Notes: generated by a model not told the origin, from the sequence alone. A stretch of 64,000 nt of DNA from Kiritimatiellia bacterium (GCA_017395505.1 JAFPUH010000037.1:59226-123225); one strand, 5' to 3'. Shown: positions 2,010-58,950, counted from the first letter of the stretch. Made by a program: numbers and translations.

Positions 2010-2086
2010 GTGCGCAAGGGGGAAAATGTAAAAAGTTTTCAACAGGTTGTAGACAATAAATCTACACACCACCATAAATAGTAGAA

Positions 2087-2118
2087 CCCCTAGGGCTGCA
2101 CTACGCATTCCCTAGGGG
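2087..2118 (-). terminator. Hairpin formed by two CCCTAGGG palindromes 14 nt apart, downstream of the galM stop; possible terminator
   Basis: CCCCTAGGG ... CCCTAGGGG inverted repeat, followed on the minus strand by TTCTACTATTTATGG. No clean U-tract. Confidence 0.3.
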
Positions 2119-2151
2119 TTGTGGCGCGCCTATATGCTGCGCGAAGGCCTT

Positions 2152-10082: not shown

Positions 10083-11303
10083 TCATTCGTCGATCGGTGG
10101 TTCGTAGCCGGGAGTGATGTCGTCGTTTGGCGTCGGCTCGACCGGCATTATCTTGATGCCGGGGCCGAGCTTGGAAGTTCCGGAAAGCACGACGCGCTCG
10201 CCAGGCTCAAGCCCGGTGACGACAGGCACCCAGCCTTCGAAGTTCTCCTTGATCTCGACGGGACGCTGCTCGACCGTCATGTCTTCGCGGACGACCCACA
10301 CGCCCTGGTTGCCGCCAGGCAGGTCGAACACGCACTGCTGGGGAATCGACGGATATACCGGCGGATTGGCGTAGTCGGTAAGAAGCGTAACGTAGCTGTT
10401 CGGTATCAGCAGCCGCTCTGGGTTGGGGAACGAGAGGCGCATCATGATCGAGGCGGTCTCCTTCGACATCTGGTTGTCGTCGAAGTCCCACGCGCCCTCC
10501 TGGTCGTACTCGCTGCCGTCTGGCAGCAGGAGGCGCATGCGGAACTCGTGGGCCATGCCCTTCCTCTGCGCCTGACGCCATGCGATATATGCACGGTCGG
10601 TGAGGGGGAACGAGACGCGGATCGGGTCGATCTGAACGATTTTCGCGAGAGGCCCCTTGGACGGCGCGACATAGTCGCCGAGGTGGGCGATTGTCTTGCC
10701 GATCTGACCGGAGATGGGCGCGACTACCTTCGCCTTCTTGAGGTCGTATTCCGCGACCACGAGATTGGCCCTTGCCTGCATCACCTTCGCTCTGGCGCTC
10801 GCGAAGCCAGCCTCGGCATCGTCAAGTTCCTTCTCGGTGATGCCGCGCGAATCGGCCTTCTCCATACGCTCGTAGTAGCGCTGTGCGCGACGCTCCTCGG
10901 CCTCGGCGGCGGATAGATCGGCCTTGCGCTGGTTCACTACGGCCTGATAGCGTTCGTCGTCAAGCACGTAGAGAAGCTGCCCTGCCTGGACGATATCGCC
11001 TTCCTTGAAGGTGATCTCCTTGATGTATCCGTCAACCTGCGGCAGAAGCTCGACCTCCTGGATAGCCTCGGCATGTGCCACGAAGCGTTCCGGCAGGTTG
11101 TAGACGCGGTTTTCGACGTTGGTCAGCGCGACGGTCTGCGGCATTCCTGCCATCGCCGCCATGGGATTGGCCGCCGCCGGCTTCTCGGCCGGCACGAGTT
11201 CGCGCGCAACCCAACCGCCGACTGCACAGACCGCAGCCAGCACAACAGTTCCTATAAGTGCGCCGATTGCGCCCTTCGATTCTTTTTTCGTGGCTTCTGC
11301 CAT
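10083..11303 (-). CDS. RND efflux periplasmic adaptor (membrane fusion protein, AcrA/HlyD family)
   Basis: 406 aa; N-terminal TM, coiled-coil, lipoyl/beta-barrel motifs (VAPISGQIG). First gene of the MFP-RND-OMF operon. Confidence 0.9.
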   Translation of the reverse strand: MAEATKKESKGAIGALIGTVVLAAVCAVGGWVARELVPAEKPAAANPMAAMAGMPQTVALTNVENRVYNLPERFVAHAEAIQEVELLPQVDGYIKEITFKEGDIVQAGQLLYVLDDERYQAVVNQRKADLSAAEAEERRAQRYYERMEKADSRGITEKELDDAEAGFASARAKVMQARANLVVAEYDLKKAKVVAPISGQIGKTIAHLGDYVAPSKGPLAKIVQIDPIRVSFPLTDRAYIAWRQAQRKGMAHEFRMRLLLPDGSEYDQEGAWDFDDNQMSKETASIMMRLSFPNPERLLIPNSYVTLLTDYANPPVYPSIPQQCVFDLPGGNQGVWVVREDMTVEQRPVEIKENFEGWVPVVTGLEPGERVVLSGTSKLGPGIKIMPVEPTPNDDITPGYEPPIDE

Positions 11304-15102: not shown

Positions 15103-15114
15103 TATATTATACCA
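15103..15114 (-). promoter_or_regulatory. Extended -10 promoter TGGTATAAT for the STAS / SBP / phosphatase-kinase operon
   Basis: rc of 15106-15114 is TGGTATAAT; about 34-nt leader with an SD. Confidence 0.5.
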
Positions 15115-15205
15115 AATTTGCCTCGTCTCGTGTGCTGGGAATTTTTGCAAAGACCACAAGGTAGGTGGACTCATGTACAGCCAAGAGCAAAATCCAGTTT
15201 CGCAT

Positions 15206-15380
15206 GGTTTGCGAAGTTGTTTTGGCAAAAATGGAGGTGGTAAGTATAGAAATATAGTATATATTAGATATATATTACTAATTATATTTTACACACAAAA
15301 ACAATTTCGCAACGCGCAGGGGGGTACCCTTATAACATGGCACACCCCATGCGAAGTTGGATTTTTGCGAAGTTGGATTT
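15206..15380. promoter_or_regulatory. Three copies of TGCGAAGTTG(G/T)(A/T)TTT (two in tandem at 15348-15380) plus a 60-bp AT-rich tract, upstream of the partner-switching operon promoter
   Basis: Direct repeats at about 15208-15223, 15348-15362 and 15367-15381. The AT-rich block 15241-15300 contrasts with the 65% GC background. Confidence 0.35.
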
Positions 15381-15386
15381 GCCCTG

Positions 15387-16010
15387 CTATGCGTTTACCC
15401 GCATATCCGCCCAGAGCTGTTCCTGTGCCTCGATGACGAGAAGCATCATTTCGCGGGTCGCGTCATCGATTTCGGCCGCTTCGTACCGTGCATTTGCGAT
15501 GTTGCCGAGCATGATCAGCGCCTCCGTCCACATCTCGTACGAGCAGGAGTCCTTCCTTTTGGCGAGTTTCGCACCTTCGAGAACGTATGCATCGAGCGCC
15601 GTTCGCACATCGCGCTGGAATACGCTCTCGTCGAAAAGCGTGTCGGTGTCGTTGGGGTCGTTCTCGTCGTCGGGGTCCTTGAGCCTGTATTCGAACGTCG
15701 CATCGAAGGCCATGACGAACATCACGACCTCCATGAGCTGGCGCTTGCTGTCGAATTCAAGCGGAAGGCGGCATACGCCGTTCGCGAGACTGTCGGAGTC
15801 CTCATTGATAGCCTTTAGAATGTGGCTCTTCACATTCTCGCGCCTTTCGGCGTCCAGTGAGGGATTCGCCGGCTGCCTGTCGTAGCCGAAGTAGAACATT
15901 TTCAGTATGGGACGCCAGAAGTCGTCCGTCCTGCGCTCCTTTGCGGCCTCCCAGTCAAGGACTTCGCCGTCGGTTCTCTGCGTCTTGCCAATGAAATCGA
16001 GCGTCTTCAT
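15387..16010 (-). CDS. Hypothetical acidic protein (207 aa), downstream partner of the P-loop protein
   Basis: ORF with a 4-nt overlap (16007-16010) to the upstream gene. No recognisable family. Confidence 0.5.
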   Translation of the reverse strand: MKTLDFIGKTQRTDGEVLDWEAAKERRTDDFWRPILKMFYFGYDRQPANPSLDAERRENVKSHILKAINEDSDSLANGVCRLPLEFDSKRQLMEVVMFVMAFDATFEYRLKDPDDENDPNDTDTLFDESVFQRDVRTALDAYVLEGAKLAKRKDSCSYEMWTEALIMLGNIANARYEAAEIDDATREMMLLVIEAQEQLWADMRVNA

Positions 16011-17779
16011 TTCGCGTTCCCCTTCTTTATGACGTATTTGGTGCCCTTTCCGTTCGAGCCGATTCTATGGAGTATCGTCACCTCGTCGCGATCTTCGAGG
16101 GTTTCCTCTATCTTGTCCATCTCGAACTTGGTGACATGCAGCCCCTTTGTGATTTCCGAGCGCATCACTCCCGCGTCGCCTGCCTTGCGGATCATGCGGA
16201 TCGCGGCGAGCACCTTCTCGTCCGTCTCGTTTGTCGCCGCGTAGTCTCGCGCCATCTGCAGCATGCGGCCCTGGATCGCCTTGACGAGCGCCCACGCCCA
16301 GCGGACGCCCTCGACGGAGATAACCGGCCTTTCGATGTCGGCGCTGATCGCGTGCAGGAGCGCGAGCTTGAGGACCAGTTCGACCGAACGTCCCCACACC
16401 GACTCCTCCATCGCGTCGCCCGCCGCCTTTTCGTAGAGCGCGTCCGACTCGTCGGAGACCTTGCGAGCCTCCTCCTCGGCTTCCGGCGACATCTGCACGA
16501 GATACGGCTGTATAGGCCCCCTGTCGCCCGCAGGCGGGGGCATCGCCGCAAGCCGCGACACCTTGTCGGTCACGAAATACGGCACGGGGTTCGCCTCCAG
16601 CCCCGACTTGAAGTTGTCCTTGCTGCGGGGCCCCGCCTCGAATACGAGGCAGCGCCCGAGAAGTCCGCCCGTAAGCGCGCGCTGGCTGAGGGCGCTGTAG
16701 AAGTTGCTCGGCGTCGCTGTCGCGAACATCGAGAAAGAGGGCTTTACGATGTCCTCTCGGCCCTGCGGCTTGTTGGGGCCGGCGGCCTTGGCGCGCGTCG
16801 TGTGGATCGAGCCGGACGACGTGAAGATGCTCAGCATCAAGCGCCAGAGGGATTCCGTCGCCGAGCTGCTGTTGCGGTCGCTCTTGAGCTCGCGAAGCAC
16901 CGAGTCGTACTCGTCGAACTGGCAAAGGAGCGTCGGCGAGTTGAGGAGCGCATCCTCGAGGCCCTGTCCAGAGGCGACGTTCTGTATGACGGACGACGAC
17001 ATGCGGACGTTCGCGGCGAGGTTCTTTATCACCTTTCGGGGGTGGTCCTTGCCGGTCGCGGAGCCGGCGAGCGCGATTATGTAGAGGTTTGGGTATGCGT
17101 CGCGGGGGCCGACGAACTTGCGTCCCGCCAGGTGGGCGAGGAACACGAGCGAGCCCGCGAAGGAAAGCACGCGATTCGGACGGTGGGCCGAGAGCATCAT
17201 GTATTCGGTGAGCTCGTTCACGAAGCCGGGCACATTGAGGAGCGACTCGTCGATCGCGCCCTGGTTCTGGGGCGAGGACGCCTTCTCGGGGGCCGGCGCG
17301 GCCTCGTCGCCGCAGGGCGGCAGGGTGATGGTCGAGATCATGTCTCGAGCGGCCGTGTAGCGGCTCGTCACCTCCTCGTTGAGCGCGGAAAGCGCAAACT
17401 GGCGGGCCTCGAAGGACGGGAAGCTCCGCATGTTGATGTCTTCGGTGCCGCGCCTGAGGTCGCGCTCGCACACGACGGACACGAACTCGCGGAAGTCGGT
17501 GCGAATCGTGGCGGTACTCGCCGCGAGGCCATTGAAGAAGTCCAGAAACCCGTCGTCGGCCAGCTCCGGCATGCTCTTTACGGCCGCAACGCCGCGTACT
17601 ATGGCGTCTTGGCTCGTTTCGTTCATAAGCGCACGGAAAGCGGCGCTTCGGCTGTCGCTCGAGAAATAGCTGTTCTCAATTCCGATCCGCTCGACAAGGA
17701 GTTTCGCCTGCCGCGCGAACTGCACAAGATGAGACAGCACCGCATACTCAAGCCGCTCTTCTTTGGTGATGTCTTTCAT
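16007..17779 (-). CDS. P-loop NTPase-like protein resembling the DUF3987 / VirE (phage-plasmid primase C-terminal-like) family, with a C-terminal winged-helix-like region
   Basis: 590 aa from the internal ATG at 17779. The longer track ORF to 17959 would read through the REP-like repeat. Deviant Walker A LYIIALAGSATGKD and Walker-B-like LLCQFDEYD. TGGTATAAT sits 8 nt upstream of the ATG, suggesting a leaderless transcript. Confidence 0.55.
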   Translation of the reverse strand: MKDITKEERLEYAVLSHLVQFARQAKLLVERIGIENSYFSSDSRSAAFRALMNETSQDAIVRGVAAVKSMPELADDGFLDFFNGLAASTATIRTDFREFVSVVCERDLRRGTEDINMRSFPSFEARQFALSALNEEVTSRYTAARDMISTITLPPCGDEAAPAPEKASSPQNQGAIDESLLNVPGFVNELTEYMMLSAHRPNRVLSFAGSLVFLAHLAGRKFVGPRDAYPNLYIIALAGSATGKDHPRKVIKNLAANVRMSSSVIQNVASGQGLEDALLNSPTLLCQFDEYDSVLRELKSDRNSSSATESLWRLMLSIFTSSGSIHTTRAKAAGPNKPQGREDIVKPSFSMFATATPSNFYSALSQRALTGGLLGRCLVFEAGPRSKDNFKSGLEANPVPYFVTDKVSRLAAMPPPAGDRGPIQPYLVQMSPEAEEEARKVSDESDALYEKAAGDAMEESVWGRSVELVLKLALLHAISADIERPVISVEGVRWAWALVKAIQGRMLQMARDYAATNETDEKVLAAIRMIRKAGDAGVMRSEITKGLHVTKFEMDKIEETLEDRDEVTILHRIGSNGKGTKYVIKKGNAK

Positions 17780-17820
17780 GGCTACTATTATACCAAAAAT
17801 GGCGAGACGGTGCGTCGCAC

Positions 17821-18030
17821 AGGTCCCGGCGGGCAAGGCGTCAAAGTCCCAGGACCCCAGACTATTTTGCCCTGCCACTTTTCGTATTGGAGTCCCAGGA
17901 CCCCAGACGTCAAACCCCCAGGACTTTGACCCCTTGGGTCCTAGGACTTCACACCTCAAAGTCCTAGGACTTCATACCCCAAAGTCCTAGGACTTTGCTC
18001 GCCTCTCCGCGTGACCCCTTCAAGCCGCCT
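17821..18030. repeat. REP-like intergenic element, copy A (about 210 bp) with three GTCCTAGGAC palindromes; homologous to 58599..58760
   Basis: Alignable to copy B from AGGTCC(C/A)GGCGGGCAAGGCGTCAAAGTCCC through GACTTTGCTC.CCT.CCGCGTG. Several nested inverted repeats. Confidence 0.8.
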
Positions 18031-18043
18031 CGAAGAACCACTT

Positions 18044-18071
18044 TCCGCACCATATTTGCAAATATGGTGCG
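18044..18071. repeat. Perfect 28-bp palindrome CCGCACCATATTTGCAAATATGGTGCGG
   Basis: Seen directly in sequence. It sits 26 nt past the stop of the 18097..20262 gene and is not followed by a T-tract. Confidence 0.8.
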
Positions 18072-18096
18072 GAATTCTAACGCCCGTAATATTACG

Positions 18097-20262
18097 CTAT
18101 GGCATTTCGACCGTCACCTTGAAGAACCGATGAAGCGAATTGGTCGGATACGCCCATTCCTCAGTAGACGATAGCGTCTCCTTGCCATATATCTTGTAAA
18201 GCCGTTCAATGCTATTCGTGTTCAAGTTCGGCTCCCATGTCACAACTGGCACGCCATCTTGCATGTCTATCTTCGCCGTAAACACGCTCGTTTCATTCGT
18301 CGGGTTTGTTCCGGCCACAAACTCTTCCCAAAGTCTCGTCGCCTTCCCGCCCTGCGTCTTGCCGCTCAAGGCAATCGCCGTTGTCTCGAAGTCAGTATCC
18401 TTGCCATCAAAACCGTATTTCGTCAACCACGAATACGGCACGGGTTCTGGTGTGGTCATTGTGAAGCCACTACCGTCGGCAGGCGCCCACTGCACCTGAT
18501 CAACCCAAATGCAGTCTGGCGCATACGAAGTCGCGCCATCCTTGCGGTATTCCCATTTGAGCGTATGCTTGCCGCCTCCCACAATTTCATGCGAGACATA
18601 ATGCCATTCGCCATCATGGCCGGCAATCCTCGCCACAACCACATCATCTACCAAGAAAGCACCATAATCATAGTAACCGTCGTCCCCTTCTTCCTCATCG
18701 GCTTCTTCGCACGCCGCTCTCCACCAGAACGACACCTTACCGTCCTTCTTAATCGAAGATTGCAGCCATGTAGTCTCGTTATTGCCAATCGTACCACTCT
18801 GCACGGACGACACGCCGTCATGCGAAACGTCCGTCACAACGGTCCAGGGATGCGAGTCATCCGTCTCCATCGTGTAACCGTAGAAATTCGCCGCCTCGCT
18901 CAAAGACTCACTTCGCGTGAAGGTCGCCGTAGCCTCTTCCGAATCCTTCCAATCATCCTTGACGGCAATCGCCCGCACGCTGCAAGATTGATAGATGCCG
19001 AAAGGATGCTTGTACTCGCGCCCATTCACCGCTGGGTCGCCCCCGTCAACCGTGTAGAGTATCGTCGCTCCTTCAGTCTCGCACGAAATCGAAACTGCCT
19101 GTGAAACATTGTCAAAGGTTATCCCGCTTGGTTCGATAACTGGTCGCTCAACAGTATACCACTCGCGCGTAAACGTCGCCGTCGCAGTTTCGCTATCAAA
19201 CCAATCCTCCTTAAATGCTTTGGCCTTAACCGTTGTTGTGTCGTCAATTGCAAACGGTCCTGTGTAGAGCGCACTCTTCTCCGTCGGTTCACTCCCATCA
19301 AGCGTATAATGAATCTCGACACTATCGGTTTCACAAGAAAGCGTCACTATGTTGCCGGCCCAATTGAACACATTCTCTTCTGCGGATATGTTCGGCTCGA
19401 CTGCTTGACCAAACGCATACTCATTCGAGTAAACGACTTGATATGGATATTCGGCAACATACGCCAATGCCTTGACTTGTACCCGATGGGTTATCGAAAA
19501 CGGGCCTTCATACAGGAAACATTTTGCGGTTTGATTTGTAGTCGGCTCGCTCCCGTCAATCGTATAATAAATTTTTGCGGTATCATTTGCTGATGTCAAA
19601 ACAACTTTTCTGTCTTCAGCAAGCACGCCGTCAGCTGGAGCAAAGTTCACTTTTGCGGCTCCATAATCCACCGCGCCCATGAGCCATGTTTCACCTTCTA
19701 CCCAGTCTTCGCATCCCTCAACCGCCATACATCCATTACCTTGAGAGTAATTGAAGCGTCCCGTGCAGCTACATTCGCGGCCGCCGGCACTCCAACTAGA
19801 TGAAATAGTGGTTGCTGGTTTTAAGCCTTCAAACATGATATTTACTGTATTTTTGATGGGATAAACCCACCAGCCTCGCCATGTATCATAATAATTATGA
19901 TCCCTGAGACTTGCCCTCGAAAAAAATGAGCTTCCATTTGTTGCGATTCTTAAAACGGTTGAAGGGACTATTACGGCCGTCACATCCGAATCATCAGGTA
20001 TTTTGATAGCACCTACCCCAATACCAACTACTGGCATACCATCAATCATAGATGGCAATCTTAATACCTTTGGCAGCGCTCCACTATGGGCGGGCAATGG
20101 ACTATTGGACTCATTAGGAACCATTGTTCGTGTGGAGGGATTCTCCAAAACAACGCCATCTTTATCTTCATAATAATACCAAGTGATTCCTTCTATGGTT
20201 TGTGTCAGAGCAAAGACACTGCTGGTGATCCCCGCAAATATCAAGACTAACATGCTTTTCAT
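18097..20262 (-). CDS. Secreted or cell-surface protein with a BspA-like leucine-rich region and four chitobiase/beta-hexosaminidase C-terminal-type (Fn3-like) repeats
   Basis: 721 aa with signal peptide. Repeated IYYT(I/L)DGSEPT / ILYTVDGGDP modules. Markedly lower GC than the flanks. Confidence 0.75.
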   Translation of the reverse strand: MKSMLVLIFAGITSSVFALTQTIEGITWYYYEDKDGVVLENPSTRTMVPNESNSPLPAHSGALPKVLRLPSMIDGMPVVGIGVGAIKIPDDSDVTAVIVPSTVLRIATNGSSFFSRASLRDHNYYDTWRGWWVYPIKNTVNIMFEGLKPATTISSSWSAGGRECSCTGRFNYSQGNGCMAVEGCEDWVEGETWLMGAVDYGAAKVNFAPADGVLAEDRKVVLTSANDTAKIYYTIDGSEPTTNQTAKCFLYEGPFSITHRVQVKALAYVAEYPYQVVYSNEYAFGQAVEPNISAEENVFNWAGNIVTLSCETDSVEIHYTLDGSEPTEKSALYTGPFAIDDTTTVKAKAFKEDWFDSETATATFTREWYTVERPVIEPSGITFDNVSQAVSISCETEGATILYTVDGGDPAVNGREYKHPFGIYQSCSVRAIAVKDDWKDSEEATATFTRSESLSEAANFYGYTMETDDSHPWTVVTDVSHDGVSSVQSGTIGNNETTWLQSSIKKDGKVSFWWRAACEEADEEEGDDGYYDYGAFLVDDVVVARIAGHDGEWHYVSHEIVGGGKHTLKWEYRKDGATSYAPDCIWVDQVQWAPADGSGFTMTTPEPVPYSWLTKYGFDGKDTDFETTAIALSGKTQGGKATRLWEEFVAGTNPTNETSVFTAKIDMQDGVPVVTWEPNLNTNSIERLYKIYGKETLSSTEEWAYPTNSLHRFFKVTVEMP

Positions 20263-20627
20263 ACTCTTTCTCCTTTCGTAGAATCTGTGATAATGATATG
20301 CGTGCCATAAGGTGCACCTCGTTTTTGAAGTTCCATCTTAATGTTCAATTTATGCCATTCACAATACCTCTTAAGTTCCTCGAATTCTTCTAGTCCGTCG
20401 AAGGCTCCGCTTCCGTGATGCCGAGAGATGAAGCAAACATCACCAGTCGTTGTATAACCAACAGTGGCATGATCAAGAAACTTCAAATTCTTACAAGAAC
20501 CAAATATGCTTTTTTGTAAGCAACCCCTTGGGCACCGGCCGCCACGCAAAACCAGAGCTGGGCAACCAGAATGATAAGTCTTAATCTCCTTGCCGTCTGG
20601 TAAGGAATAAATGTATGGTTTTGACAT
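20259..20627 (-). CDS. Small Cys/His-rich hypothetical protein (122 aa), translationally coupled upstream of the surface protein
   Basis: 4-nt overlap with 18097..20262. Motifs SGCPALVLRGGRCPRGC and HATVGY..ISRHHGSG. Possibly a papain-like or C39-like fold, unproven. Confidence 0.45.
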   Translation of the reverse strand: MSKPYIYSLPDGKEIKTYHSGCPALVLRGGRCPRGCLQKSIFGSCKNLKFLDHATVGYTTTGDVCFISRHHGSGAFDGLEEFEELKRYCEWHKLNIKMELQKRGAPYGTHIIITDSTKGERV

Positions 20628-20852
20628 CTATCAGTATCTCCTTTCGCCTGCCGCTACCTAGTTTGTGAGATGAGCACCGGTGGCAAAAGATAAGCGGCGC
20701 ACTCTCAAGATTCACATCTTCTGGAGGCACCGGAAAGAGCCCGAAGTAAAACATGATTAGAAAGTACGCCGCGTGGATACCACGCAGCGCAACTTCGTAT
20801 TTCGCCTTACTCCTTGAAAATTTCCGGTTTTCCAGAAAGCTACTATACGCTG

Positions 20853-21036
20853 TTGCGTACGTTGCACGGGTTAGGTTGCCCACCCCGCGCTTTTCTCCAC
20901 TCCACTTCACCCGAAGTGTGGGAGCTACGGCCGGCTTTTCTGCCCGACCGGTATGTCAAAGAACCTTGCCCTTCTCGCGAAGGAACGGCGAATATGATAC
21001 CATATCGCCGCGCTCATTTCAAGCGCGGCGAGAGGG
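20853..21036 (-). repeat. About 185-bp repeat R190, copy 1: GC-rich structured segment ending in a hairpin (TCGCCGCGC-TCATTTCAA-GCGCGGCGA) immediately followed by TGGTATCAT
   Basis: More than 95% identical to 21616..21797. The 3' 50 nt also occur at 23121..23170 and, diverged, at 58836..58878. Confidence 0.85.
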
Positions 21037-21063
21037 AAATTAGTTTTCGAAATTCTGTGCCTA

Positions 21064-21312
21064 CTACACCCGAACACCATATTCATATATGGCATCACTC
21101 GGCAAATCTATTCTATCGCTCCAAACAACGCATGTCCGACTTGAATCAAGCCGCGCATTCTCAAACAACCCAGGCAATGTGCGCAAGTCTTCAAACGCCT
21201 TTATTGTGCTGATATCATCGGCGACGTCATATACCACATCCCGCCCCTCGTCAAAATGGACGAAGAGTTTGTAATCTGGCAAGGTCTTAATACTTGATAT
21301 CCTGCGTATCAT
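21064..21312 (-). CDS. DUF2442 family protein
   Basis: 82 aa with the characteristic ...VVWSDRIDL....LY C-terminal pattern. Forms the usual pair with DUF4160. Confidence 0.65.
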   Translation of the reverse strand: MIRRISSIKTLPDYKLFVHFDEGRDVVYDVADDISTIKAFEDLRTLPGLFENARLDSSRTCVVWSDRIDLPSDAIYEYGVRV

Positions 21313-21324
21313 AGCTTAGCCCTA

Positions 21325-21576
21325 TCAAAGCGGTGGCAGCTTCACTATCCGCTGTGTCTTCCACATTTCTTCCAGTTCGCCTCTGTGCAACGACAACCAT
21401 TCCTTGACAAGTCGCTGCGCAGTCAATGGCAAATCTCCATCCGTCATTTCGGACGAAGCCAAATCAAACACTCCGACGCACTCGCCATAAATGGCATGTA
21501 TGTGCGACGGATCATGTTCTTTAGGCTTAAAGAACATCTTAACGACTATACCATAAAATCTTGCAATCTCTGGCAT
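21325..21576 (-). CDS. DUF4160 family protein
   Basis: Starts at internal ATG 21576 (MPEIARFYGIVVKMF...HIHA.YGE...) with SD GGAGGG 8 nt upstream. The track ORF to 21630 is an upstream extension. Confidence 0.65.
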   Translation of the reverse strand: MPEIARFYGIVVKMFFKPKEHDPSHIHAIYGECVGVFDLASSEMTDGDLPLTAQRLVKEWLSLHRGELEEMWKTQRIVKLPPL

Positions 21577-21615
21577 TTTAAATGCCCTCCTTTCTTTCCG
21601 ATGGTCTATTCTAAA

Positions 21616-21797
21616 TTGCGTACGCTGCACGGGTTAGGTTGCCCACCCCGCGCTTTTCTCCACTCCACTTCACCCGAAGTGTGGGAGCTACGGCCGGCTT
21701 TTCTGCCCGACCGGTATGTCAAAGAACCTTGCCCTTCTCGCGAAGAACAGCGAATATAATACCATATCGCCGCGCTCATTTCAAGCGCGGCGAGAGG
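21616..21797 (-). repeat. About 185-bp repeat R190, copy 2 (hairpin plus TGGTATTAT at its upstream end); precedes the DUF4160/DUF2442 cassette
   Basis: Near-identical to 20853..21036; ends 40 nt before the DUF4160 ATG. Confidence 0.85.
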
Positions 21798-21850
21798 TCA
21801 AAATCTCATTCCTTCAGTGGGCTCGGAGTAATGCGCAAATCCGGCTGCAA

Positions 21851-22051
21851 TCACTTTGAACGAATACAGTTGTAAAGATATTCGCCACTTTCACGGTAAA
21901 GTCCCGACTCAGGGTCTATCAGCTTAGTGAAGAATGCAGAATGATAAACCTCGTCCATGGCATCTTCAGGCGACTTACCCTCATGTGCGACAATCGCCGC
22001 AATCAAGTCCTGTATCGCAAACTCGATAAGCTGCTTCTGCTCATTTGACAT
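21851..22051 (-). CDS. DUF3791-like small protein
   Basis: Internal start MSNEQKQLIEFAI...SPEDAMDEVYHSAFFTKL resembles the DUF3791 N-terminal region. Overlaps the DUF3990 3' end. Confidence 0.5.
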   Translation of the reverse strand: MSNEQKQLIEFAIQDLIAAIVAHEGKSPEDAMDEVYHSAFFTKLIDPESGLYRESGEYLYNCIRSK

Positions 22052-22538
22052 TGAGCACCTCCTTGAAGCGAAGCAACTTGACGGCACGTTCGGTATGGAA
22101 TGAATACTGCGTATAAAGCTCCTTGAACTTCATGCGCTGCGCAAACTCATCAACCGTAATCAAATCCTTTTCATACAAACGAAACAGCAACGAGAGTTTG
22201 TCGTTCGCAATAGGACCGACAACAACATCATACCGATTGTCACGATTGTGGTCTTCCGCTGGCTGATCAATCTTTCTGTTTGCCTTTACAAAAAGCGCCC
22301 ATTCACGACACGGCTCAGCAAACTTTTTCACATTCAAGGAATCAAAAACGCCATCATCCGCTTCAAACACCATGACCTTAGGCACGCCTCCTAGCCGGAC
22401 GACTCTTTGGCGAGCAGTCTTCTCTGCGCACTCAAGCGAACTTGTCGCATAAAAGCCCCGTCCAAAATCTTTAGCCGGCAGACCTTTGGCAAGGTCGATT
22501 TCGCAAAATCCCAGATTTGACCCATGGTAAAGCTTCAT
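22041..22538 (-). CDS. DUF3990 family protein
   Basis: MKLYHGSN...DFGRGFYATSS matches the hallmark N-terminus of DUF3990. Confidence 0.7.
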   Translation of the reverse strand: MKLYHGSNLGFCEIDLAKGLPAKDFGRGFYATSSLECAEKTARQRVVRLGGVPKVMVFEADDGVFDSLNVKKFAEPCREWALFVKANRKIDQPAEDHNRDNRYDVVVGPIANDKLSLLFRLYEKDLITVDEFAQRMKFKELYTQYSFHTERAVKLLRFKEVLNVK

Positions 22539-22795
22539 GCGGCGACACCTCCGTTCCTGCGAGCGACTTGGGCCATATCAGCGACCGCTTCTTCAATCGA
22601 ATATGTGTGTTCAATATCGTAGTGGTCGGAAAGAAACGAAAGCGCACCATGTTTCTTCAAATAGTCGAACGCTTCCAGATATGACATACCATATGTGTCC
22701 GCAAAATCATTCACGCACACCACAAAGTAGTCAATCTTGTTTTTCGTCAATTCTGGCATGACAATCCATTTCTTTTGAGCTAATGATTCTGCCAA
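22535..22795 (-). CDS. DUF3791 family protein
   Basis: ...DYLKKHGALSFLSDHYDIEHTYSIEEAVADM pattern typical of DUF3791. ATGA overlap with DUF3990. Confidence 0.6.
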   Translation of the reverse strand: MAESLAQKKWIVMPELTKNKIDYFVVCVNDFADTYGMSYLEAFDYLKKHGALSFLSDHYDIEHTYSIEEAVADMAQVARRNGGVAA

Positions 22796-22804
22796 GGTCC
22801 CTGT

Positions 22805-23104
22805 TCATACGGCAACAGCCTCCTTGCACACACGATGCGCAAAACCAAGCGAATGCGGCAATATATGCGACGATACCAGATCAACCTTGCAGTTGAACAG
22901 TTTCTCATACTCCGACGACATAGCACATTCGTTGCGCCAACTGTATTCGCCTGGCATCCACTTCACCAAGAAATCCACATCGCTGTCGGGACGCTCCTCC
23001 TTGCGGGCGCACGAGCCGAAGACCCAAAGCTTTTCGGCCTTGTGCTTCCTGGCGATGGCGTATATCTCGTCACGCCTCGCCCGTATCTCGTCAAGCATGC
23101 ACAT
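22805..23104 (-). CDS. Minimal nucleotidyltransferase (MNT / Pol-beta superfamily), no cognate HEPN partner seen
   Basis: Start MCMLDEI... (ATG at 23104 or 23098). GS-x9-DxD motif in LWVFGSCARKEERPDSDVDFLV. Confidence 0.7.
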   Translation of the reverse strand: MCMLDEIRARRDEIYAIARKHKAEKLWVFGSCARKEERPDSDVDFLVKWMPGEYSWRNECAMSSEYEKLFNCKVDLVSSHILPHSLGFAHRVCKEAVAV

Positions 23105-23120
23105 ATTTGCAACATCCCGA

Positions 23121-23170
23121 AGGAACACCGATATGATACCATATCGCCACGCGCGAATCAAGCGCTGAAC
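23121..23170 (-). repeat. R190 3'-tail fragment (hairpin plus TGGTATCAT) at the right boundary of the low-GC island
   Basis: CGAAGGAACACCGATATGATACCATATCGCCACGCGCGAATCAAGCGCTG aligns to the last 50 nt of R190. GC composition returns to the flank level immediately to the right. Confidence 0.7.
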
Positions 23171-23172
23171 GA

Positions 23173-24318
23173 TCAGGAGAAAGTCTTTGCGTAATCGGAG
23201 TAGATAGCGGCCGCGTCAAGGTCCGACCGTGCCATTCTGAAGGCGTTTGCGCCGCATTTCGCAGTGTCGAGCGAACTGAGCGTTCTCACGAGACTTGCGG
23301 CATCGGATGCGCGGTATAGGGCGCCGGCCTCATGGCGGGCGAGCAGCTTGGCGCTTTCGCCGCCGAGGGAGCTGACGACCGCAAGCGATGCTTTGGCATA
23401 GTCGCAGAGCTTGTAAGGTACGCCGACGCAGCTTGAATCGTCCATCGGTATCATGCCGACGTTGCAGCCGGCGAACATGCGCGAAAGCTCCTCTTCGCCA
23501 AGATAGCCCCTGAAGCGAACGCGCGACGAAACGCCAAGCCCTTCCGCAAGCTGGCGCAGCGCCCCTTCTCCTTCTCCCTTTCCGGCGATGTCTAGCGTTG
23601 CGTCAGGCAGTTCTGCGAGAGCGCTCACGACTGTTGCGAGGTCGTATGTCCGGCCGAGATTTCCGGCGTATGCGAGGCGCAGCGCGCCATCATCCTTACG
23701 GACGACAGCAGAAGCGCCGGACATGTCGATGCCGTGGTAGAACCTGCGAACTTCGCCCTTGAAACCGTAGCCGCGAACGAGATCGATGTAGCGGTCTGCT
23801 ACGACGGTTATCGCGTCCGCACCGAGGTAGTTCGCTCGGGCGAGGCGGCGAAGCGGCCATAGCGCCGCCTTGGGAGCGACGCGCTCGAACGTCTCTGGCC
23901 ACGCATCCATGACATCAATGACGAGCTTGGCGCCGAATTTCGCTGCGAGACGGCGAGCGACGAGTCCTGTCGAGAGCGGAGGAGTCGAGACGACGATCAG
24001 ATCAGGGGCGCCATTCTTTTTCGCCGCGGCTTGGGCGAGGCGCGACCATTCGCGCGAATAACGCCAGTGGCTGATCATGCGGCCAAGCGAGACGTTGGCG
24101 GAATAAGGCGGCTCGTGCACCAGGCGAAGCGCGAAACTAGGCGGCTCTCCTGCTATGGCGCGGCGTGTCTTTGTCGTATGGTTGAAGTCGGCCGTCCAGA
24201 GGGTCACTTCATGCCCCGCGCGCGCAAAAGCCTCCGCCATGAGCCAATACCGCTGGGGACGAAAACCCTCCAGCGGAAGGTTGTCGAAGGGATTCTCTAT
24301 CCAGACGCGCAAATTCAC
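23173..24318 (-). CDS. Glycosyltransferase family 4 (RfaG-like)
   Basis: GTG start overlapping the der stop (GTGA). N-terminus ...GFRPQRYWLMAEAFARAGHEVTLWT and C-terminal E-x7-E region typical of GT4. The track extension to 24816 overlaps der and is rejected. Confidence 0.75.
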   Translation of the reverse strand: MNLRVWIENPFDNLPLEGFRPQRYWLMAEAFARAGHEVTLWTADFNHTTKTRRAIAGEPPSFALRLVHEPPYSANVSLGRMISHWRYSREWSRLAQAAAKKNGAPDLIVVSTPPLSTGLVARRLAAKFGAKLVIDVMDAWPETFERVAPKAALWPLRRLARANYLGADAITVVADRYIDLVRGYGFKGEVRRFYHGIDMSGASAVVRKDDGALRLAYAGNLGRTYDLATVVSALAELPDATLDIAGKGEGEGALRQLAEGLGVSSRVRFRGYLGEEELSRMFAGCNVGMIPMDDSSCVGVPYKLCDYAKASLAVVSSLGGESAKLLARHEAGALYRASDAASLVRTLSSLDTAKCGANAFRMARSDLDAAAIYSDYAKTFS

Positions 24319-58154: not shown

Positions 58155-58307
58155 TTATATCTTCAGGCAGATGACGAGCAGCTCGACGGCAATGACGACG
58201 AGCGAGGCGGCGATGACTATTCCGACGGCCGTAATCATCCGCCCCCACTCACGGAAAGCCGTCGCGGACTCCCTCGCCGATTCCTTGATGTTGTCGAACC
58301 ATTTCAT
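58155..58307 (-). CDS. Unannotated 50-aa single-TM peptide (MKWFDNIKESARESATAFREWGRMITAVGIVIAASLVVIAVELLVICLKI), leaderless
   Basis: Not in the ORF track (under 60 aa). TGATATACT sits 7 nt before the ATG. Polar N-terminal half, then one hydrophobic helix. The opposite-strand 60-aa ORF (58171..58353 +) has no such signals. Confidence 0.35.
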   Translation of the reverse strand: MKWFDNIKESARESATAFREWGRMITAVGIVIAASLVVIAVELLVICLKI

Positions 58308-58433
58308 GCAGTCAGTATATCATATCCAGCCCCTTCCCGCAACCAGACATTAAAGCCGCCGTCTTTATCGCCCAACTCTTAAGGCCTAGGCGGAATTCGG
58401 GTTGGTATTGTATTTAGATTCTCTTTTCTATTC

Positions 58434-58500
58434 TCTTTTGTGTCCCGCTGTGGGAGGGTATCCCTCCCGCTGTGGGAGGGTGGGGGTCCCACTCTGGGAT
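58434..58500. repeat. Tandem hairpin repeats (CCC)TCCCGCTGTGGGAGGG(T) x2 plus a degenerate third unit
   Basis: GTGTCCCGCTGTGGGAGGGTATCCCTCCCGCTGTGGGAGGGTGGGGGTCCCACTCTGGGATG. Each unit is itself an inverted repeat (CCCTCCC-GCTGT-GGGAGGG). Confidence 0.7.
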
Positions 58501-58598
58501 GATGTCCCCTACAGTTAGGGAGATGTAGCGTGTACTTGATTGGCATAATGATGCGATGGCGAATCTTCTACAAAAAACGCCCTTCGACGCTGCTGTGC

Positions 58599-58760
58599 AG
58601 GTCCAGGCGGGCAAGGCGTCAAAGTCCCGGGACCCCAGACCTTTTTCCCCCGCCACTTTTCGTATTGGGGTCCCAGGGCCCTACACGTCAAACCCCCAGG
58701 ACTTTGACCATTGGGGTCCTAGGACTTTGCTCCCCTCCCCGCGTGGCCCTTTCTAGCCGC
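58599..58760. repeat. REP-like intergenic element, copy B (about 160 bp; one GTCCTAGGAC palindrome); homologous to 17821..18030
   Basis: Same orientation and about 85% identity with copy A over the alignable parts. The spurious 58414..58656 ORF lies inside it. Confidence 0.8.
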
Positions 58761-58835
58761 GACCGTCTAAGCGCAACCAACACCCAGGGGCAGCAAGCTT
58801 CAACCCAAAGAAATGCTCAAGTCACAGGAACAGAG

Positions 58836-58878
58836 ATATAACACCAAATCGCCGTGCTCATTTCAAGTGGGGCGAAAG
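58836..58878. repeat. Diverged R190 3'-tail (hairpin TCGCCGTGC-TCATTTCAA-GTGGGGCGA plus TGGTGTTAT) next to REP-B
   Basis: ATATAACACCAAATCGCCGTGCTCATTTCAAGTGGGGCGAAAG aligns to the R190 tail ATGATACCATATCGCCGCGCTCATTTCAAGCGCGGCGAGAG. Confidence 0.55.
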
Positions 58879-58950
58879 TGCAGGCCATCTTCGCGCTTGC
58901 TTACTCTGCGGCGAATATAGTATAATATGCATTAATTTAATGGTGGCAAT

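Follow-up and report, generated by a model that had tools for sequence, protein, structure and literature searches.

A low-GC block in a Kiritimatiellia genome is probably the cargo half of a small genomic island with a putative replication backbone

Introduction

The phage-inducible chromosomal minimalist islands (PICMI) of Vibrionaceae are defined by int, alpA, a primase gene (DUF3987/DUF5906) and fis, are excised by their own integrase, and carry a hot spot of defence genes beside the primase gene (PMC10803314). Here we describe a locus in a 64,000-nucleotide (nt) stretch of DNA from a Kiritimatiellia bacterium (GCA_017395505.1 JAFPUH010000037.1:59226-123225; this whole stretch is hereafter called the window) that probably represents an island of approximately 8.0 kb, in which a low-GC block of cargo genes is joined to a backbone encoding a DUF3987-type, helicase-like replication protein. 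Similar to PICMI, the locus is a small chromosomal island of few genes in which defence-type cargo adjoins a DUF3987-type replication gene. Unlike PICMI, it belongs to a host of another phylum, and no int, alpA or fis was found in the island in the window or in two related islands, L113 and L123 (L numbers denote comparison loci, all of which are metagenome contigs); in addition, it has promoter-headed cassettes and a phased palindrome array, neither of which is reported for PICMI. Of the features by which phage satellites are recognized, it therefore possesses a primase/helicase-type replication gene but not an integrase and excision regulator of its own.

Other mobile elements offer partial parallels. 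In the replication module of phage-inducible chromosomal islands and Staphylococcus aureus pathogenicity islands (PICI/SaPI), a rep helicase gene lies adjacent to an iteron-containing, AT-rich origin. The present locus likewise has an ori-like region directly 3' of its replication genes, with iterons that flank an AT-rich stretch and differ between related elements; it differs in the protein family, in having only a predicted origin, and in the absence of a Stl-type repressor, int/xis, terminase and capsid-redirecting genes. P4-like satellites have defence hot spots, and lambdoid phages exchange modules at short conserved boundary sequences. A conserved backbone, a variable defence slot and apparent exchange at short conserved sequences are common to these elements and to the island, but the former encode integrases and packaging signals, whereas the linker of the island is a complete predicted promoter. 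As in integrons and clusters of attC sites lacking integron-integrases (CALIN), short co-oriented cassettes, rich in toxin-antitoxin-type genes, each carry one hairpin element and are shared between arrays. Unlike an integron, however, the locus has no IntI, its repeat is a predicted 5' promoter, and its array is joined to a replication module rather than to attI/Pc; whereas integron cassettes are promoterless, those of the island are each headed by a sigma-70-like promoter. Finally, repetitive extragenic palindromes, bacterial interspersed mosaic elements and REPINs (REP/BIME/REPINs) resemble the palindromes described below in that several short palindromes are grouped between genes and such groups occur more than once in a genome. 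We do not assign the locus to a REP/BIME system because its arrays are rare, strictly phased at 23 nt and island-linked; no REP-associated tyrosine transposase (RAYT) appears in the gene tables.

Judged by its sequence, the locus may be filed as a genomic island of small size and replicative type whose hot spot carries defence and surface-protein genes. Its three unusual traits are the lack of a recombinase in cis, the same predicted promoter on every cassette, and the phased palindrome array. Kiritimatiellia are common uncultured gut and rumen bacteria whose mobile DNA is almost undescribed, and the locus provides a concrete, testable picture of how accessory genes are carried and reshuffled in this group. 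It also raises the question of how an island encoding no recombinase changes site and swaps cassettes.

Results

The low-GC block is part of a larger unit

An earlier note on this sequence described low-GC DNA lying between a palindrome array, REP-A, and the tail of a repeat termed R190, listed the cargo genes, and read the locus as a recurrent insertion or cassette-capture site with REP-A as one edge. The composition of the block agrees with this description: GC is 0.463-0.533 in 1-kb windows across 18001-23000 vs approximately 0.60 in the remaining window, and the profile at 200-nt resolution falls near 17.9 kb and returns near 23.2 kb. Third-codon-position GC (GC3) is 0.37-0.52 in the cargo genes, with a higher value of 0.68 for the nucleotidyltransferase (NTase) gene, and 0.69-0.81 in core genes (SpoIIE-type phosphatase, SBP, STAS, glycosyltransferase (GT), Der and CorA); the range given for the flanking core genes is 0.75-0.85. 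The cargo genes were recovered by Pfam and PADLOC, and pairwise identities showed that REP-A, its second copy REP-B and the R190 copies are genuine repeats.

REP-A itself proved to be internal rather than an edge, as the mobile unit runs on through the DUF3987 gene and the gene for a 207-aa protein (p207) to approximately 15183. This backbone of approximately 2.6 kb is compositionally native (GC3 of 0.85 for DUF3987 and 0.77 for p207). Since homology to L113 ends at 15183 and strain divergence occurs at 23144, we define the unit as approximately 15183-23144 (8.0 kb); the low-GC block is thus probably the cargo half of a minus-strand island that also contains a replication backbone (Table 1). 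Every island gene lies on the minus strand, and a 650-aa open reading frame (ORF) called mechanically across REP-A has its true start at the ATG at 17779. As is classical for genomic islands, the composition deviates and a sister strain is different beyond 23144.

Table 1. Features of the island and of the solo repeat pair, with positions in the window
Feature	Position	Strand	Remarks
Ori-like end	15183..15386	-	AT-rich core flanked by AACTTCGCA iterons; right junction with core DNA at about 15183
p207 orphan gene	15387..16010	-	207 aa; always after DUF3987; present in L113 and L123
DUF3987 helicase-like replication protein (predicted)	16007..17779	-	590 aa; PF13148, E 8.8e-10
DUF3987 promoter (predicted)	17786..17817	-	Extended -10, TGGTATAAT; ATG 7 nt downstream
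REP-A	17820..18028	.	Phased CCYRGG-centred palindromes, core AAGTCCTAGGACTT; between cargo and backbone
Terminator-like 14-bp hairpin	18043..18074	-	After surface-protein gene; L111/L113 homology resumes here
Surface-protein cassette gene	18097..20262	-	721 aa; three CHB_HEX_C_1/Fn3_assoc repeats (Pfam)
Cys-rich protein	20259..20627	-	122 aa; no Pfam, PHROG or PADLOC family
X leader	20684..20866	-	Candidate structured cis-regulatory RNA, about 183 nt, between R190 copy 1 and Cys-rich gene
R190 copy 1	20853..21035	-	Hairpin-promoter tail (20983-21035) plus leader of about 130 nt
DUF4160 + DUF2442 pair	21064..21576	-	DUF4160 21325-21576, DUF2442 21064-21312; 97% identical in other islands
R190 copy 2	21616..21797	-	Hairpin-promoter plus leader
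DUF3791 + DUF3990 + 66-aa protein	21851..22795	-	Match PADLOC candidate PDC-M13 A/B/C
Nucleotidyltransferase (Polbeta/NTP_transf_2)	22805..23104	-	Matches PADLOC candidate PDC-S09
Tail promoter of first cassette (predicted)	23116..23165	-	TTGATT-17-TATCAT, TG upstream; strain-variable DNA begins at 23144
Solo pair	58576..58879	-	Degenerate tail 58827-58879, 66 nt, REP-B 58598-58760, decayed promoter, terminator-like hairpin 58576-58591

Backbone and cassettes recur at other chromosomal sites

Read in the direction of transcription, the array consists of a tail followed by the NTase gene and the DUF3791/DUF3990/p66 genes, then a tail with R190 leader followed by DUF4160/DUF2442, and last a tail with R190 leader and X leader RNA followed by the genes for the Cys-rich protein and the CHB_HEX surface protein. 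Searched by exact sequence, the 83-aa DUF4160 protein was found on 23 contigs, and in at least six independent assemblies (L111, L112, L113, L115, L116 and L118) the same modules reside at another chromosomal site. In this L111-type order, a phenylacetate-CoA-ligase-type core gene is followed by a 39-nt fragment of the R190 3' end, a DUF1016/YhcG nuclease cassette, a full R190 with DUF4160 and DUF2442, a tail alone with the gene for a BspA-type leucine-rich repeat (LRR) protein of 1154-1200 aa, and finally REP, DUF3987, the gene for a 210-aa protein, the AT-rich end and a dihydrodipicolinate synthase (DHDPS) core gene.

Three parts of the window have matches in related islands. Positions 21796-20983 (R190, DUF4160, DUF2442 and the next tail) are 97% identical in L111, L113, L116, L118 and L119; positions 18060-15183 (hairpin, REP-A, DUF3987, p207 and AT-rich end) correspond to L113:10217-13117 with 95.9% identity; and the third match is a short R190 fragment. 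The shared backbone ends at …GGATTTTGCTCTT in both genomes and is then followed by different core DNA, the flanks being the phenylacetate-CoA-ligase-type gene and DHDPS in L113 vs GT and STAS in the window.

Related islands carry other cargo in the same slot, in line with the cassette capture proposed in the earlier note: between tail and REP, the surface-protein cassette is replaced by BspA-type LRR_5 proteins in L113 and L119. L119 has gene families like those of the window but in a different order (R190, DUF4160-DUF2442, tail, DUF3990, 80-aa protein, DUF3791, tail, FRG, LRR protein), and in L117 the R190 leader stands behind a different, hairpin-less promoter directly after a core gene. A third island, L123/L124, encodes a DUF3987 protein 90% identical to that of the window, with 87% DNA identity along 17799-15207; the cargo in L123 (GC 0.40-0.51) comprises an antitoxin, an EcoRII restriction-modification system and Vsr. 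Across these islands, the cargo thus includes candidate anti-phage or addiction modules (PDC-M13, PDC-S09, DUF4160/DUF2442, EcoRII) and large BspA/CHB_HEX surface proteins.

Taken together, other chromosomal sites hold copies of the backbone and of individual cassettes that are 87-97% identical to those of the window, and the points where other cassettes adjoin coincide exactly with the tails; the 97% cassette identity between otherwise different islands points to recent exchange. These comparisons establish, as far as sequence goes, that the locus is a mosaic of cassettes predicted to be self-transcribed. The idea of recurrent insertion or cassette capture is accordingly retained in part: the DNA is strain-variable, cassettes are re-assorted and a tail stands at every cassette junction, but REP-A does not form the edge.

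Strain variation begins inside the first tail

The Der gene beside the island encodes a protein 79-90% identical to Der of 80 metagenome-assembled genome (MAG) species. Their sources are rumen, yak, goat, horse and human gut, and they bear the labels Kiritimatiellae, 'Lentisphaerae' or 'Verrucomicrobia'. The 80 Der-anchored loci of these species contained no island gene; we set these loci aside for defining the island, as synteny beyond GT is too poor. The DNA downstream of GT is different in each relative, being a lower-GC surface protein in L005, a type III secretion cluster in L091, and in L092 a promoter with tRNA-Cys (11212-11285) followed by SurA, SpoU, VWA and exosortase genes. The position after GT (L092) and the position after a hydrogenase operon (L101) are synteny breakpoints in the clade; in L101:10604-11680, from another related species, a tyrosine integrase gene lies directly after the hydrogenase operon.

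Two contigs, L089 and L090, share 97.5% identity with the window over 6-11 kb, and their homology ends at 23144, in the part of the tail that separates the -35 hairpin from the -10 box. Beyond this point they contain unrelated DNA with a helix-turn-helix (HTH) gene on the opposite strand. The left limit of the strain-variable DNA therefore lies inside the tail. In both contigs (L089:11147-11512, L090:6030-6144) a tail-like hairpin, CCTCGCCGCGTTTGAAACGGGGCTGGCGAGG, is kept after GT and is followed by ACATRGGTAACACTTAG repeats; the same stretch holds divergent promoters, whose operators are palindromic, and the opposite-strand HTH gene, which is of Xre type with an odd C-terminus, and L089 and L090 diverge from each other approximately 100 nt in.

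At the opposite end, Logan contigs from three samples begin at window positions 15209-15212, 29 nt inside the end at 15183 (15183 + k-2), which would correspond to a branch point of a k=31 graph if the island end joins more than one flank. Searching for exact copies of Der, GT, DUF3987 and NTase recovered nothing beyond this strain and locus.

Each cassette is headed by a putative hairpin-promoter

The two R190 copies are 96-99% identical to each other, and the 53-nt tails at 23122-23174 and 58827-58879 share 68-72% identity with them. On the coding (minus) strand, the tail reads TTGAAA-17 nt-TATCAT/TATTAT, preceded by TGG. The sequence TGGTATNAT occurs 13 times in the window vs 0.4 expected, always on the minus (coding) strand and upstream of genes; because of this excess and its strict strand preference, we take it to be the extended -10 promoter of the organism. 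The R190 tail is thus, by its sequence features, a sigma-70 promoter and not merely a boundary repeat, and in a consensus scan no sigma-70-like site of the region scores higher than the three island tails.

The -35 hexamer is located in the loop of an 8-9-bp GC hairpin (CGCCGCGC-N9-GCGCGGCG). Hairpin, TGGTATNAT and approximately 12 nt of initial transcript form a module of approximately 58 nt that is conserved en bloc, and alignment of the tails shows sharp limits with unrelated DNA on either side. Five kinds of downstream continuation were observed (the R190 leader, a second leader before LRR/FRG genes, NTase, DUF3990 and the 58.8-kb copy), along with several different contexts upstream. The tail elements have a host-like GC of 0.58, whereas the ORFs they head are foreign in composition. 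In 1.77 Mb of Kiritimatiellia DNA the tail motif is confined to islands, save for one core promoter in L062/L064. The R190 leader of approximately 130 nt folds better than shuffled sequences (z = -3.0).

Tails were also considered as attC sites and rejected on inspection of the sequence: they have a perfect 8-9-bp stem and a 9-nt loop that includes TTGAAA, lie at the 5' end, and lack R''/L''-L'/R' boxes. A single GTTAGGT/ACCTAAC in the R190 leader has no partner box with which to form the RYYYAAC…GTTRRRY arrangement of attC.

As a separate observation, the Logan contigs L003 and L004, from different samples, both end at window position 23083, 18 nt inside the NTase gene, which suggests that in those samples the first approximately 30 nt past the tail also stand in some other context; for NTase itself, however, exact look-up gave this locus alone.

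The backbone resembles a replication module

The 590-aa protein matches PF13148 with 38.7 bits (cut-off 27) and phrog_3022 'DNA primase' over positions 336-758 (C-terminal two thirds; E 1.5e-61). It shares 24-28% identity with primase/helicases of 330 phage records but matched only one plasmid record. Its distant homologues of 740-820 aa bear an N-terminal PrimPol domain that the form in the window lacks. The p207 protein has no Pfam, PHROG or PADLOC match and is represented by only 25 clusters among 1.84 billion proteins; its single-sequence AlphaFold2 model (pLDDT 48) was unusable for a fold search.

The ori-like end is a 200-nt stretch with a GC of 0.38, in which iterons start at 15210, 15350 and 15366 and are accompanied by partial inverted copies. 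The region was compared with L113:12885-13125 and L123:12020-12250. In L123 all iterons, direct and inverted, read AACGTCACA vs AACTTCGCA in the window, while the AT-rich core is conserved. Concerted iteron change around a conserved spacer is as expected of an origin with shifted initiator specificity, making this region a candidate origin. Island DNA had no match in the plasmid collection and no blastn match in the phage collection, and scans of viral contigs for the REP pattern, the tail pattern and DUF3987 gave no match.

Phased palindrome arrays accompany variable cargo

REP-A and REP-B are approximately 90% identical. The sequence AGTCCYRGGAC has 14 matches in the window vs 2.7 expected, all of them within the two arrays. 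Successive CCYRGG cores are spaced at 23, 23, 23, 23 and 46 nt in REP-A, 23, 23 and 46 nt in REP-B, 23, 23 and 23 nt in the L113 copy, and 23 and 23 nt in L088. The last was the one match of a REP pattern search of JGI metagenomes; there the array sits at a GC step between a glycosyltransferase/HAD/cytidylyltransferase block (GC 0.40-0.50) and a mobile-element-like block with HU-HIG proteins, and is followed by a promoter that matches the DUF3987 promoter at 90% identity along 32 nt but heads a different first gene. L123:12260-12390 has another type of array, with five CCCTAGGGG-centred units at a 23-24-nt period, and this lies between ori and cargo, whereas REP-A lies between cargo and the DUF3987 promoter.

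In the 1.77 Mb of Kiritimatiellia DNA, phased arrays of at least three cores were found at five distinct loci, all at the places described here, and shuffles gave 0. No phased array was found in approximately 1.3 Mb of related Der-anchored loci, compared with two loci in the 64-kb window. The REP 20-mer had 0 matches in 185,579 species genomes, the host species not being among the GTDB representatives. Within the 1.77 Mb, then, the genome-wide scatter that would have refuted the earlier note is not seen, and REP arrays and tails accompany cargo that varies.

As the units are perfect 16-18-bp palindromes two helical turns apart, the simplest reading is that REP would be a multi-site binding region for a dimeric protein, serving as an operator, a partition site or a recombination accessory. 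Other identities were rejected: Rfam returned only noise for REP (HIV RRE at 17.5 bits, mir-9318), the fold z-score of REP-B as a small RNA was merely -1.6, and a 40-kb element with REP-A and REP-B as its att sites would enclose housekeeping genes and a tRNA.

Two further observations concern these palindromes. In L116:8425-8629 the REP array is broken off past its third or fourth unit and gives way to unrelated AT-rich DNA with a GCAACCCTAGGGTTGC hairpin, which may be an insertion or recombination breakpoint. Between convergent genes at window positions 2085-2125, the inverted repeat AACCCCTAGGG…CCCTAGGGGTT has a CCTAGG core as in the REP units; it forms a single hairpin and is probably a terminator.

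The pair at 58.6-58.9 kb appears to be a decayed remnant

A tail and REP-B also occur together without cargo at 58.6-58.9 kb, a locus that the earlier note regarded as the unoccupied version of the site. The gap between tail and REP-B measures 66 nt rather than approximately 75 bp, and the two elements have the order (tail, then REP) and orientation of the last cassette slot of the island. On the other side, the -10 box of the solo tail is TGTTAT and the consensus scan does not call a promoter there, REP-B has two units fewer than REP-A, and the hydrogenase-side look-up, which returned many species, found no same-species variant with cargo, same-species contigs being identical to the window. 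After REP-B come a sequence resembling a decayed DUF3987-type promoter (GCGTTTTTTGTAGAAG vs GCCATTTTTGGTATAAT) and a terminator-like hairpin. The intergenic DNA of the solo pair is species-specific, and other species have different neighbours at that hydrogenase operon. The pair thus shares the layout of an unoccupied site yet looks like a decayed solo copy or remnant. Beside REP-B, positions 58400-58530 contain CCCGCTGTGGGAGGGT repeats able to form hairpins, followed by the gene for a predicted 50-aa membrane protein (58155-58308).

Proposed mechanism and alternative explanations

In the model we favour, the element replicates, or once did, from the iteron origin in the manner of a satellite or small episome; its cargo would consist of defence, addiction and surface-variation genes, and would change when the conserved promoter modules recombine, for which homologous recombination between the 58-183-nt repeats is the simplest route. 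Homologous exchange is ranked first because repeats of this length suffice and because the conserved block is what a promoter needs.

Several points weigh against a mobile island of this kind. In the window, L113 and L123 alike, no gene for an integrase, excisionase, transposase or relaxase was detected within the island or next to it. Pfam detected no recombinase among the island genes, none appears in the gene tables of L113 and L123, and tblastn of a Kiritimatiellia tyrosine integrase against the 64 kb reached a best E of 0.69, in line with the view of the earlier note that the recombinase is not in the window. The two island ends share no direct repeat of at least 9 nt, and no tRNA is present at either of them, the sole tRNA in the window being at 44.4 kb, so insertion is deduced from the differing flanks only. 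Neither an empty-site allele (GT joined to STAS, or ligase joined to DHDPS) nor a circular form was seen; the ligase-DHDPS search was abandoned owing to the strong conservation and paralogy of the ligases (93% identity for the best cluster, and another context for the cluster that was looked up). The GC3 of the backbone is that of the host and its divergence (96%, 87%) roughly follows genome divergence, and occasional relocation during a long residence is no less likely than frequent transfer. The distinct islands observed number three to five, repeats of 180-200 nt could yield chimeric joins in the comparison contigs, though independent assemblies agree, and the functions given for DUF3987, p207, REP, tails and cassettes are annotations at the level of family or sequence.

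Cassettes might instead be exchanged site-specifically, with the tail hairpin as an attC-like recombination site, REP as an attI- or res-like site, and a recombinase encoded elsewhere or a backbone protein that would insert circular cassettes and excise them. The tail limits, sharp to 1-2 nt at eight junctions between unrelated DNA on both sides, would fit such a process. So would the direct R190 copies that bracket the DUF4160 cassette, the 40-nt repeat of the R190 3' end that brackets the DUF1016 cassette of L113, and the tail-REP interval, which holds different cargo in the window and L111 and spans 66 nt at 58.8 kb; the REP units are moreover palindromes with a central TA/YR in 23-nt phase, and the L116 break falls inside REP. 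We nevertheless consider this explanation unlikely because no recombinase lies in or beside the three islands. RYYYAAC/GTTRRRY boxes and a hairpin with extrahelical bases are also lacking, the conserved stretch coincides with promoter elements and initial transcript, as expected of a functional promoter, repeats of 58-183 nt are enough for RecA-dependent exchange, and the L117 R190 leader stands behind a promoter that has no hairpin.

A bolder version, which we regard as doubtful to a similar degree, would make the locus a type of integrase-less island in which a 2.6-kb replicon is coupled to cassette exchange at the promoter-hairpin, with REP as a docking or accessory site, functionally analogous to an integron but made of unrelated parts; on this view the tail and REP-B at 58.8 kb would form a dock that is empty or spent. 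If so, each captured foreign gene would arrive with, or land behind, a native promoter.

It is likewise improbable that nothing moves and that the synteny breakpoint after GT is an immobile hypervariable locus that gathers foreign DNA, with a common regulator and chromosome rearrangements accounting for the likeness between loci. Consistent with such a locus, each relative differs after GT (surface protein, type III secretion cluster, tRNA-Cys and SurA, or HTH gene), the upstream neighbour of the hydrogenase operon likewise differs per species, and the GC3 of the backbone is host-like. Both flanks differ between the window and L113, however, and yet the 2.9-kb backbone ends at the same nucleotide (…GGATTTTGCTCTT); one cassette is found at 97% identity in three neighbourhoods; and an iteron origin with a phage-type helicase is a hallmark of an autonomous element.

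Least probable of all is a decaying prophage or satellite remnant that has lost int, regulators and packaging genes, in which REP would be an old operator (lambdoid tripartite operators are similar in unit size and 23-nt period), the cargo 'moron' DNA and nothing would move: it would explain the missing int, a DUF3987 protein without the PrimPol domain of longer homologues, and the visible degeneration of REP-B and its tail, but the 590-aa protein, p207 and ori are conserved with intact ORFs at three or more loci and in 82 homologues, the iterons co-vary as a set, and cassettes are 97% identical between otherwise different islands.

For the favoured model of a replicating island with homologous cassette exchange, a searchable signature is available in the combination of DUF3987, p207 and iteron ori, together with the hairpin-promoter of 58 nt and the CCYRGG array phased at 23 nt.

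A candidate leader RNA and promoters of the lineage

Two by-products of the analysis are a candidate leader RNA upstream of surface- or secreted-protein operons and a strong consensus promoter for the lineage. The X leader, which contains an internal terminator-like hairpin (20765-20791), is approximately 80% identical to L011:1927-2112(-), which precedes an acyltransferase gene. With a covariance model derived from these two sequences, a full-length diverged copy was identified, L058:8487-8670(+), with 64.7 bits (E 3e-15), upstream of secreted-protein genes, along with weaker matches in L022 and L119. In the three sequences, 56 pairs are formed and 92% of cells are paired; compensatory double changes occur in 14/56 pairs vs 5.1 ± 1.7 in shuffles, of which 0/500 reach 14, and slid controls yield 1-7 compensatory pairs. 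One 8-bp helix reads ACCGGAAA/TTTCCGGT, ACCGCTAA/TTAGCGGT and ACGACCAA/TTGGTCGT in the three copies. A wider alignment with L022, L119 and L111 was discarded, the MAFFT alignment being too poor for pair counts. Neither the X leader nor the R190 leader has a meaningful Rfam match (E<=1 over 17500-23400), and there is none at gathering thresholds in the whole window. With three sequences, the X leader is a lead, not proof, for a new covarying cis-regulatory RNA outside Rfam.

The position of the DUF3987 promoter predicts a leaderless mRNA. Promoters of the lineage are often TGGTATAAT with a start codon 7-12 nt downstream (17779-17795, 15106-15114, 27717, 44345 and 53425 in the window; L064:1490-1530), a spacing which suggests that leaderless mRNAs may be frequent in these bacteria.

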